Below, one piece after another: positions 9,278-11,664 of a DNA stretch of 64,000 nt. The stretch lies in contig JAKFCY010000002.1 of assembly GCA_036676395.1 (NCBI GenBank), positions 1,888,001-1,952,000 on the forward strand, read 5' to 3'. Within the stretch, counting starts at the first letter, position 1, and each line of letters opens with the position of its first letter. The notes beneath the pieces were generated by a model. That model saw nothing but the letters and a program-made list of their open reading frames with translations, made no database searches and had not been told where the DNA came from. The stretch is from Bdellovibrio sp. Its GTDB lineage: Bacteria; Bdellovibrionota; Bdellovibrionia; Bdellovibrionales; Bdellovibrionaceae. Made by a program: the position numbers and the translations under genes.

Positions 9278-9466
9278 TATTGTAGGTCTCCTTTTATATT
9301 TTTTCTGAAATCTTTCAGATTTACTTTTTTGTCGTTTTTACTTACCGACATTAAGACATAAATTTAACATTTCGCCAATGAAAAAAGGGCCAGTTTCTCT
9401 CTCGAGGATTGTCTGATTTTTCATCTTAATTTTGAGTGTGATTTTCGGCCTGCGTCACAGCCTAAA

Positions 9467-10738
9467 CTACTTAGCATTACCTGAAGAACTGCTCTTTTTT
9501 ACGTCATTGCCAGAGTTTTCTGAGCTTGATACTGAAGTGTTCGCAAATTGGCTTAAACCTTTTAGTTTATTGGTGTGTTTTGGACAAGTTTTGCGGTTAT
9601 CTAAGTAGTTTCCAAGCAAACCGGTAAAGGCGTAACCTGAAACTTTATGTTCTCCTGAACCGTAAGAGGCGCATAAATAAGACTCAGGGTGAGCTTTCTT
9701 TTGCTTTTTTAAAGACTCAGAAACCATGTCATTGATTTCTGAATTATTCATCAGTGAATTAAGCATGATCTCTGACGTTCCCGCCCCATACACCGGCGTT
9801 GTTCCCATATGCACTTTGTATAAACATTGATTGCTCATCGGCTCAGTCACACCGAACTTGCCAAAGCCATTAAATGATTGTGCATACATGGCCATCTTTT
9901 CTTCAGGCCGCCTCATGCCGGCAGATCGCCTTGCGGCTGAAGTAAAACGATTTTGCATATACTTATGCGCCATTATATCTAAAATTTTTAAACGCAACTC
10001 ATCACCTGGATATGAAAAAACCTGATCTATCTTTTCTTCATCACGAATCGGTTCATGCACGAATCCTGCTGGATTTGTTTTAACCACCATACAGCACTCA
10101 TCTTTCTGGGGGTTGCTCACTAGAAAAAACATTGCACTTTGACCAACGGCAAAATTTTCAAGACAAACCGTATGATCTTTTCCTTTTGGGTCTTCGGTAA
10201 ATTTTTTCAGACGCGAGCTGCGGTTTTTTAAATCCACCAGGCCGTTGTCATACCCTGTTCTTTCGCGGTCACAGCCCATGGTATCACCAACAGCAATAGC
10301 ATCCAGTGGAATAGTCCCGAAAGCTGAAGCATAAGATTGCGCCGAAGTCATATTGTCGACCACCTTGCGGCCTGCAAGCGGTGGGTTTTCAGTCACAACG
10401 ATCGCTAAAGCCAAATAGGGATCATTGCCCGCCTTGATCGCAGAATCTATAATTTCTTGCACAGTTTTTTTATGATACTTTGTCGATTCTTTACTTTGAT
10501 AATACTGATCGTTGGGCATTGATAGCGTCATCAGTTCAGATGATTTATTTGTTTTTTTAGAATCAAAACAATTTAAATATCCATTGGCTAAAAAGGCTTT
10601 ACACTCGTCAGTGTTTTGATTAACCGTCACGTTTTCAAAACGTGTTATTTTTTTCTCAGCACATGAAATTTTATATTCATAAGCAGATGCATGAACGCCA
10701 GCAAAAATTATAAGCGTAGAAAGTTTATTTAACTTCAT
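9467..10738 (-). CDS. Secreted Cys-rich protein, putative divergent lytic transglycosylase/lysozyme-like fold
   Basis: Signal peptide; IIDSAIKAGNDPYLALAIVVTE resembles SLT motif I (E117); AMYAQSFNGFG resembles A-YNxG; 10 Cys. Confidence 0.5.
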   Translation of the reverse strand: MKLNKLSTLIIFAGVHASAYEYKISCAEKKITRFENVTVNQNTDECKAFLANGYLNCFDSKKTNKSSELMTLSMPNDQYYQSKESTKYHKKTVQEIIDSAIKAGNDPYLALAIVVTENPPLAGRKVVDNMTSAQSYASAFGTIPLDAIAVGDTMGCDRERTGYDNGLVDLKNRSSRLKKFTEDPKGKDHTVCLENFAVGQSAMFFLVSNPQKDECCMVVKTNPAGFVHEPIRDEEKIDQVFSYPGDELRLKILDIMAHKYMQNRFTSAARRSAGMRRPEEKMAMYAQSFNGFGKFGVTEPMSNQCLYKVHMGTTPVYGAGTSEIMLNSLMNNSEINDMVSESLKKQKKAHPESYLCASYGSGEHKVSGYAFTGLLGNYLDNRKTCPKHTNKLKGLSQFANTSVSSSENSGNDVKKSSSSGNAK

Positions 10739-11144
10739 AAACTTTTGTGACCTTATTGTAATTCCACGTCATCTTACCGGATTTTGCGTCAGCAGATTTG
10801 GTTTCGGTTAAAATTTCAGGCAAGTCAGAATCTTTGACTGATTTTGACTGCGCAAAAACGCCATCGATCATTCCGGCGAAATCAAAACTTCCACTCGGGT
10901 TTTTTACGAAGGCGTAATACGTGCAAAGTCCGCTGCCACAAGCTGCCGAAGAATTTAAAAGGATTACGCCGTGCTTAAAAGCTTTATCCTTTTTCAAAAC
11001 GATACGTCGAATGTCATCAGGATTTACTTTTTCTTTTTGCGCCACATATTCAGGTAAAAATGATTCTTTCAATGTGGTTTTTGCTGTTTGTGAAAACGCG
11101 AATACCGAAGCAAAAAGCACTATGAAAAATGAAACTTTATCCAT
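10725..11144 (-). CDS. Small secreted hypothetical protein with CGSGLC motif
   Basis: Signal peptide MDKVSFFIVLFASVFAFS; ACGSGLCTYYAF; overlaps the next gene by 14 bp. Confidence 0.65.
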   Translation of the reverse strand: MDKVSFFIVLFASVFAFSQTAKTTLKESFLPEYVAQKEKVNPDDIRRIVLKKDKAFKHGVILLNSSAACGSGLCTYYAFVKNPSGSFDFAGMIDGVFAQSKSVKDSDLPEILTETKSADAKSGKMTWNYNKVTKVYEVK

Positions 11145-11220
11145 AGCTTATTTAAACATTTTTTTTGAATGTTGGGTAAAAACAAGGCTTAACACAGGAC
11201 TTTTGTTAGGTCCTAAAAAT

Positions 11221-11250
11221 AAAAAACCCAGATCTTTCAATCTGGGTTTT
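11221..11250 (-). terminator. Rho-independent terminator after rpsO
   Basis: AAAACCCAGAT-N6-ATCTGGGTTTT hairpin followed by a U-run on the minus strand. Confidence 0.85.
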
Positions 11251-11277
11251 ATTAATCTTGAACTGTAAGGTTCTAAA

Positions 11278-11547
11278 TTATTTACGGATTTCTAATGCTT
11301 TGATTAGAGTTTCGTAACGAGAAGTGCTTCTAGATTTTAAATAATCTAAAAGTTGGCGACGTTGATTTACACATTGTAAAAGACCACGACGGCTGTGGTT
11401 GTCTTTTTTGTGAGTTGCGAAGTGACCTGTTAAATCGTTAATACGAGCCGTAAGTAACGCAACTTGAACTTCTGGAGATCCAGTGTCTAGTTCGCCAGTT
11501 TTGAATTTTTTTAAGATGTCTGCTTTTTGTTGTTTTGTAACTGCCAT
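11278..11547 (-). CDS. rpsO: 30S ribosomal protein S15
   Basis: [25 protein letters not shown]; 89 aa. Confidence 0.99.
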
Positions 11548-11664
11548 TAAATGCTCCTATGCATGTCGTGTGTTTTAATCCGCTCTCCGAATCCTCGTCA
11601 TGACTGACTTAGGGCCCCGATTTGTGCGATGGAATTTTTTAACAATTTCGATAGTTTATGGCAA
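11548..11664 (-). promoter_or_regulatory. rpsO sigma70-type promoter and 5' leader
   Basis: TTGCCA-17-(TGn)TAAAAA at 11664-11636, then an ~80 nt leader ending in AGGAG. S15 autoregulation is inferred only. Confidence 0.5.

Follow-up and report, generated by a model that had tools for sequence, protein, structure and literature searches.

A cysteine-rich lysozyme-like protein and a small partner encoded between rpsO and pnp of a Bdellovibrio species: a candidate enzyme-inhibitor pair

The subject of this study is a pair of overlapping open reading frames (ORFs), ORF139 and ORF423, in a 64,000-nucleotide (nt) stretch of DNA from Bdellovibrio sp. (GenBank assembly GCA_036676395.1, contig JAKFCY010000002.1, positions 1,888,001 to 1,952,000 of the forward strand; hereafter, the window). 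The ORF list of the window gives the minus-strand gene order infB, rbfA, truB, rpsO, a hairpin, ORF139, ORF423 and pnp (Table 1). An earlier note, made from the sequence alone, had described two overlapping genes for exported proteins between the rpsO terminator and pnp, and the coordinates bear this out. The motifs that it quoted from ORF423 lie where it had placed them (E117 within DPYLALAIVVTENPP, AFGTIPL at 139, YMQNRF at 260 and AMYAQSFNGFG at 283), as does the CGSGLC of ORF139 at 69-74, and a count of the cysteines of ORF423 gives exactly ten. The ATG of ORF423 lies inside the final codons of ORF139, an overlap that fits translational coupling of the two genes, and at three other loci (L002, L003 and L010) the large gene overlaps the small one in the same way. 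A promoter scan of the minus strand found no sigma-70-like site in the stretch that separates ORF139 from the rpsO hairpin, and the number of such sites in the region equals the expectation from shuffled sequence. Read by eye, the N-termini of both proteins (MKLNKLSTLIIFAGVHASA and MDKVSFFIVLFASVFAFS) look like Sec signal peptides.

Table 1. Location of the genes, motifs and related phage proteins discussed in the text (positions refer to the window unless a viral locus, L, is named)
Feature	Position	Strand	Basis or remark
rpsO, ribosomal protein S15, 89 amino acids (aa)	11278..11547	-	upstream flank of the insertion; ORF
Terminator-like hairpin 3' of rpsO, 12-bp stem then T-run	11223..11250	-	sequence read
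ORF139, small exported partner, 139 aa	10725..11144	-	ORF; 33 homologues; AlphaFold2 model
CGSGLC loop (C-x4-C), ORF139 codons 69-74	10923..10940	-	C69, G70 and C74 invariant in 24 rows
Overlap of 14 nt, ORF139 stop region and ORF423 start	10725..10738	-	sequence
ORF423, exported Cys-rich protein, apparently of the lysozyme superfamily, 423 aa	9467..10738	-	ORF; homologues; model; profiles
Putative catalytic-helix motif DPYLALAIVVTENPP, codons 106-120	10379..10423	-	alignment; E117 codon GAA at 10390..10388
Beta-rich insertion, codons ~156-245, with C156, C192 and C215-C216	10004..10273	-	AlphaFold2 strands; hhalign gap
AQSFNGFG, codons 286-293, putative equivalent of SLT AYNxG	9860..9883	-	Q287, N290, G291 and G293 invariant; aligns to AAYNxG
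PVYGAG, codons 315-320, conserved motif predicted beside the cleft	9779..9796	-	alignment; residues 316-317 in predicted interface
Ser/Lys-rich low-confidence tail, codons 396-423	9470..9553	-	pLDDT <50 for 401-423; variable alignment
pnp, polynucleotide phosphorylase, 698 aa	7181..9277	-	downstream flank; ORF
Phage multi-domain protein with short form	L053, 3200-5329		
Phage multi-domain protein with short form	L062, 2990-5623		
Phage multi-domain protein with short form	L075, 3896-8476		
Phage multi-domain protein with short form	L080, 176-7444		

ORF139 and ORF423 are real genes, because they have homologues (33 and 43, respectively), invariant cysteines and E117, and confident AlphaFold2 models. 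The 43 homologues of ORF423, itself included, came from a collection of 5.8 billion proteins, are 37-92% identical and carry neither a name nor a Pfam domain; those of ORF139 are about 139 aa long. Any match to ORF423 was found in nine of 41 related genomes, the window's own genome included, which has neither another copy of the family nor any GH73 protein. Close orthologues occur in two other genomes (G018 and G016), in the same rpsO-pnp slot and with a 139-aa gene upstream, and distant relatives of 430-545 aa occur in six. At an unrelated locus, G018 additionally possesses a whole diverged pair of 142 aa and 413 aa, 40% identical and overlapping likewise (L010, G018:C1 1056-2694, the same as L032). 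In four genomes without the pair (G003, G012, G006 and G029) a long ORF begins some 70-130 nt after rpsO, and in G003 this ORF is 77% identical to the pnp of the window; rpsO itself is 60-87% identical to the rpsO of five relatives. Judged from these gene orders, the pair is an insertion between rpsO and pnp. It appears neither recent nor foreign by composition, because the G+C content of its two genes, 0.40 and 0.38, is the same as the window's (0.40) and no meaningful repeats flank it; the intergenic regions align uninformatively with those of relatives.

Two further observations concern the pair and its relatives. At L004 (G020), L007/L012 (G006) and L009 (G005), distant relatives that are 470-545 aa long and carry longer insertions lie immediately downstream of lon; two of these loci have a small CxxxxC partner and L007/L012 has none, and the large genes are followed by a conserved small gene on the other strand. 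Contigs from soil metatranscriptomes (two runs from two studies) match the window at 9389-9537, 10099-10455, 10607-10757 and 11395-11600, covering parts of ORF423, the ORF139/ORF423 junction and rpsO; these are Logan contigs of relatives, 151-262 nt long and 95-99% alike, in which DNA carry-over is possible, so they are no proof of transcription.

The conservation of ORF423 is concentrated in a few motifs and in its cysteines. An alignment of 34 homologues, from which nine near-duplicates or fragments were left out (P0005, 6, 10, 11, 14, 16, 18, 23 and 27), contains 55 invariant columns, including all ten Cys (positions 26, 46, 57, 156, 192, 215, 216, 305, 356 and 385), E117, D146, Q287, N290, G291, G293, P315, Y317 and G318. 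The earlier note had proposed E117 as a catalytic residue and its conservation in homologues as a check, and the glutamate is indeed kept in 34 of 34 close homologues. When 145 distant relatives were fitted to the family model, in which gaps may hide divergent cases, it was also kept in 95 of the 95 that cover the column (50 do not). Most other motif positions are nearly as constant in the relatives that cover them: Q287 (126/126), N290 (123/127), G291 (126/127), P315 (132/133), Y317 (130/133) and G318 (133/133), with D146 kept in 73 of 89. The AlphaFold2 model built from the 34-row alignment (mean predicted local distance difference test, pLDDT, 80.8; predicted template modelling score, pTM, 0.82) begins with a small beta region, followed by helices at 90-117, a beta-rich part at 156-244 and a helical C-lobe at 246-379; the helix 107-117 ends in E117.

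The shape of this model is that of a lysozyme-like enzyme. In an exhaustive VIA search of 48,161 chains, the matches listed were almost wholly lysozyme-superfamily enzymes by title, among them a GH23 chitinase (3w6b, 5.4), MltC (4c5f, 5.4), Slt (5o2n, 5.3), a g-type lysozyme (4g9s, 5.3), Tse3 (4luq, 5.1), MltF (5aa1, 5.1), Slt70 (1qsa, 5.0) and MltE (4hjy, 4.6), and the model appears to have the two-lobed alpha+beta fold of lysozymes. A second line of evidence runs through shorter proteins. A profile search of 1.84 billion representatives with ORF423 yielded 193 relatives at E up to 1e-3, and short relatives of 218-265 aa, which do not contain the middle of ORF423, keep the motifs DPYTALAxxxQE[ST]G, QAWNGYGK and NPVYGKR. 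The ORF423 family aligns to eight of these short relatives with an hhalign probability of 99.1 (E 8.9e-19), residues ~160-245 being gapped. The same eight align to nine SLT domains of the window's own genome (probability 46, P 2e-4, score 33.8, 141 columns), pairing their Glu with the catalytic Glu and QAxNGYG with AAYNxG. Compared with SLT directly, the ORF423 family gave P 0.008 and a score of 26.1, with E117 on the catalytic Glu; control scores from reversed and 30 column-shuffled SLT alignments had maxima of 14.7 and 17.2, below the real scores. The earlier note's assignments of E117 as the catalytic Glu and of QSFNGFG as the counterpart of AYNxG were thereby upheld in silico, E117 being aligned to the SLT catalytic Glu as well as invariant, and A-Q-x-[YF]-N-G-x-G, itself invariant, corresponding to AYNxG by way of the short relatives. 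ORF423 thus seems to belong to the lysozyme superfamily, because a chain of profiles leads via phage relatives to SLT and because Glu117 is conserved. It is not, by the sequence comparisons made, an SLT/GH23 (PF01464) family member in the database sense: the genome has nine canonical SLT proteins found with the Pfam PF01464 model, which ORF423 fails even at E up to 10.

Other family models gave faint signals or none. ORF423 has no match to GH73 Glucosaminidase (PF01832), to which three of the 20 short or partial relatives scanned match weakly (E 0.004-0.06; 14-18 bits, the cut-off being 30.2), and PHROG "transglycosylase" families are matched below threshold by 4 of 14 short relatives (E 0.002-0.01). 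A profile search of the PDB with the eight short relatives returned noise only (E at least 0.84), and a Pfam scan of 50 long and 20 short distant relatives found no lysozyme-type domain above its cut-off; one distant relative of 2004 aa has a trypsin domain. In a protein atlas all scores for ORF423 were below 0.9, with one viral cluster, a lead only, in which 21% of members carry SLT.

The relatives without the insertion are found in phages. This short form occurs at 61 viral-contig loci in IMG/VR; at 14 of the 26 loci examined it is a protein of 227-289 aa, and at the other 12 it lies inside open frames of 377-2506 aa, seven of which exceed 1100 aa. Ten were scanned for co-domains. Phage_lysozyme2 was found together with tail and tape-measure PHROGs, and YkuD together with an SLT-like N-terminus; Glucosaminidase and a crAss cargo domain were present as well. 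Domains of this sort commonly accompany a wall-degrading domain carried on virions. Across L053, L062, L075 and L080 (Table 1) the domains met are Phage_lysozyme2 with a tail protein, an SLT-like N-terminus with a YkuD L,D-transpeptidase, Glucosaminidase and crAss cargo, and such proteins look like multi-enzyme virion proteins for breaching the cell wall. The phage short forms are clearly homologous to ORF423 and have the three motifs in common with it; unlike ORF423, they have no insertion, signal peptide or most of the Cys, and carry E-[ST]-G after the Glu.

ORF139 is a different kind of protein. Its AlphaFold2 model (pLDDT 83.0) has one helix and eight beta strands, and its CGSGLC loop is presumably closed by a disulphide. 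No Pfam family was matched, Ivy and lectin families included, Foldseek found no PDB match for the model, and the protein atlas gave only unnamed clusters, which are leads. A match to FvfA was rejected as noise, with 19.9 bits over the signal peptide only against a cut-off of 130. Among 14 distinct loci with visible upstream DNA, the window counted, an ORF139 hidden Markov model detected a homologue directly upstream of the large gene at 11, including the paralogous pair of G018 and a 126-aa version with CGVHEC beside a 536-aa relative downstream of lon. Duplicates (L003/L030, L010/L032, L006/L011 and L007/L012) were counted once, and two loci starting at a contig end were left out of the 14.

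When the mature parts of the two proteins were folded together, each with its own alignment, they were predicted to form a complex. The interaction prediction score from aligned errors (ipSAE) of ORF423 with ORF139 was 0.82, 0.56 and 0.80 (median 0.80) versus 0.00 for each of three controls; the 0.80 mark is reached by 116 of 157 solved complexes and by 2 of 215 mismatched pairs, a calibration that is rough only with user-supplied alignments. The runs share at least 80% of contacts, with a partner pLDDT of at least 82. On the enzyme side the predicted interface comprises residues 116-117, 144-146, 152, 155-166, 263-271, 288-298 and 316-317, and thus E117, P144, D146, N290, G291, G293 and Y317; on the partner side it comprises 46-54, 65-75 (the CGSGLC loop), 94-102 and others. 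The tightest predicted contacts are those of enzyme residues 157-164 with partner residues 47-52, an edge-strand pairing at the start of the insertion, and partner residue 73 is predicted to touch N290 and G291. The interface holds 12 invariant enzyme residues where 7 would be expected, a mild enrichment (p 0.03), and it contains five of the six invariant columns of the partner. The complex prediction supports binding of ORF139 over the catalytic cleft of ORF423, and the small protein, which the earlier note had cast as a cognate inhibitor, is placed by it as a cleft-covering partner, with its CGSGLC loop at N290/G291 and E117 in the interface.

From these findings, which cover fold class, motif equivalences, invariance, gene linkage and a predicted interface, we infer catalysis, a peptidoglycan substrate, inhibition and a release of the enzyme from its partner, and an enzyme-inhibitor pair is the best reading of ORF423 and ORF139, one that we hold with slightly more belief than disbelief. 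ORF423 would be a Sec-exported, disulphide-stabilised enzyme that cleaves glycan strands, with the GH23 lytic transglycosylases and the goose-type lysozymes as its nearest counterparts in shape. The general acid would be Glu117, which ends the DPYLxLxIVxTE helix, the QxxNGxG and PVYG motifs would line the cleft, and the Cys-rich beta insertion would enlarge the beta lobe. The chemistry might yield 1,6-anhydro products, as in a lytic transglycosylase with a single acid, or might be hydrolysis, with D146 as a possible second acid. ORF139 would be made by translational coupling with ORF423, exported likewise and bound to it 1:1, with one of its strands paired to residues 157-164, the edge strand that the insertion would offer for docking. 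The disulphide-closed CGxGxC loop would then sit in the active-site cleft and hold it shut, keeping ORF423 silent in the producer's own periplasm and making ORF139 a dedicated proteinaceous inhibitor, or self-protection protein. Release of the enzyme could occur by secretion across the outer membrane without the partner, by dilution or by proteolysis. Use against prey is a further step, plausible for a predator and in keeping with the patchy, accessory distribution of the pair.

Several findings weigh against this interpretation. ORF423 matches nothing in Pfam or NCBIfam at E up to 10, in the PDB (by phmmer or profile) or in PHROGs, and Foldseek found no PDB match for its model. The link between the short family and SLT has a probability of only 46%. 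The residue after E117 is Asn where the E-S motif of SLT has Ser, and no GLMQ can be made out. The earlier note's pairing of AFGTIPL with GLMQ has only a partial profile alignment in its favour, over Y-[AG]-x-[FY]-G-x-[IV]-P-[LI]-D. The predicted position of E117 in the cleft rests on the alignments and the interface list. As to the partner, none was detected at three of the 14 loci (L035, L006/L011 and L007/L012), and the conserved positions of ORF139 overall are not enriched in the interface (9 versus 17 expected). The predicted interface speaks to placement, not to affinity or inhibition, and none of the evidence bears on substrate or prey.

The same evidence for an enzyme and its inhibitor would be expected if ORF423 were a housekeeping autolysin that remodels the producer's own wall during growth, division or the insertion of envelope machines, with ORF139 as its periplasmic brake, much as Ivy restrains endogenous lytic transglycosylases, and prey uninvolved. 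The G+C content of the pair, which shows nothing foreign, and its position within a housekeeping operon suit this explanation as well. It is nonetheless unlikely, as the pair is an insertion that relatives lack and is patchily distributed, only two of the other genomes having a close orthologue and nine of 41 having any member, while nine canonical SLT proteins are already present in the genome and the ten invariant Cys suggest a protein meant for a harsh or extracellular setting. Loss of activity would explain a different set of facts: no family model matches ORF423, its ES and GLMQ motifs are altered, and the large insertion and five likely disulphides could be structural, as in a catalytically dead protein that retained the lysozyme fold and the Glu for binding and that binds glycan or has a structural role in the envelope, in a non-enzymatic complex with ORF139. 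The strict invariance of Glu, QxxNG and PxYG across 188 sequences, including phage virion proteins in which they stand beside other wall hydrolase domains, is the typical pattern of a catalytic site and makes this very improbable.

A different role for the small protein was also considered, in which ORF139 targets or activates the enzyme: as a beta module of two blades resembling a lectin (cf. RSL/BambL), it would bind the substrate sugar or complete the groove, so that the heterodimer would be the active form. The predicted interface covers E117, N290, G291 and Y317, the expected substrate contacts, and such a cleft would be blocked rather than extended; moreover, unrelated propeller blades match as well as the lectins do, and no lectin family of Pfam was matched. 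We regard this role as improbable.

The proposed enzyme-inhibitor pair resembles known systems in part. Relative to GH23/SLT enzymes (PF01464; MltC, MltE, Slt70 and GEWL), ORF423 has E-N rather than E-S and no GLMQ, and it carries in addition the conserved PVYG motif, ten Cys that never vary, a further beta region at the N-terminus and, as an insertion, a beta domain of ~90 residues; the insertion and the cysteines are new features. D146 could be a second acid, which lytic transglycosylases are not known to have. As for the partner, a loop of the inhibitor Ivy is known to enter the lysozyme cleft. This protein, which inhibits lysozyme and carries a conserved CKPHDC motif, also controls bacterial lytic transglycosylases (PMC3660660). 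ORF139 is like Ivy in being small and exported and in having a conserved C-x4-C loop, which is predicted to lie on catalytic residues. It differs in that its loop reads CG[SV]G[LST]C, with only the C-x4-C spacing in common, in being mostly beta, and in being encoded as a pair coupled with its target, whereas Ivy is a general defence gene. With PliI, PliC/MliC and PliG it has no sequence similarity, and the fold match falls below the tool's caution line and is tied with unrelated propeller blades.

Self-protection has a precedent in Bdellovibrio. PMC7511926 describes a Bdellovibrio immunity protein, the ankyrin protein Bd3460, which acts with DD-endopeptidases, together with DslA, a diverged GH23-like lysozyme, and mentions both one-acid and two-acid mechanisms in the lysozyme superfamily. 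Bd3460/DslA and ORF139/ORF423 have a common logic, a wall enzyme of a predator and a means to spare its own wall, but ORF139 is no ankyrin protein, and searches of PDB sequences did not link ORF423 to DslA. Type VI pairs such as Tse3-Tsi3 differ from the present one in that both proteins here have apparent Sec-type signal peptides. We also entertain, as a doubtful extension, a scenario in which predatory Bdellovibrionota recruited a lysozyme-superfamily clade, overlooked by curated libraries and shared with phage virion lysins, as a weapon against walls that is exported by the Sec route. The insertion would serve mainly to dock a co-evolved protector, whose disulphide-closed loop would plug the cleft in a manner like that of Ivy but of independent origin, and the result would be an effector-immunity pair that operates without a type VI system.

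Leader-like sequences were also noticed beside the two flanking genes. The 189-nt spacer between ORF423 and pnp (9278-9466, minus strand) forms a leader in which the hairpin GGCTGTGACGCAGGCC stands immediately 3' of the ORF423 stop; the rpsO-pnp gap of relatives without the insertion is only ~70-130 nt, and an autoregulatory structure of pnp may have been displaced or duplicated by the insertion. Just 5' of rpsO and overlapping its start, 11491-11597 (minus strand) gives a sub-threshold match to the Rfam ribosomal S15 leader (22.7 bits against a gathering threshold of 39.5, E 0.027) that may be a diverged autoregulatory leader. A sub-threshold match to the Rfam gammaproteobacterial rimP leader at 11179-11282 on the same strand (32.3 bits, with a threshold of 47; E 0.013) spans the rpsO terminator hairpin and probably just mirrors that hairpin and its U-run.

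The fold class of ORF423 and the idea of a proteinaceous inhibitor are already known; what is new is the family, the insertion with its Cys framework, the fold and loop of the partner, and the arrangement as a coupled pair in predators. The literature found by a narrow search on lysozyme inhibitors and Bdellovibrio self-protection, as far as its available parts go, does not describe the ORF423 family. All source names among those seen are "hypothetical protein", and no fewer than 193 representatives, from predatory bacteria and from many phages, are unannotated. The family now gains a testable assignment, a wall-cleaving lysozyme-like domain with a named candidate for the catalytic Glu. The locus also holds a lesson for annotation, namely that accessory secreted modules can occur within the conserved infB-rbfA-truB-rpsO-pnp order, and the loop-in-cleft inhibitor predicted here might offer a new scaffold for inhibitors of lytic transglycosylases. 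Predator biology has yet to explain how a bacterium spares itself while attacking walls of a chemistry similar to its own. If ORF423 and ORF139 are indeed such a protection pair, a second and unrelated one based on proteins, they would widen the repertoire known from bacterial predators.

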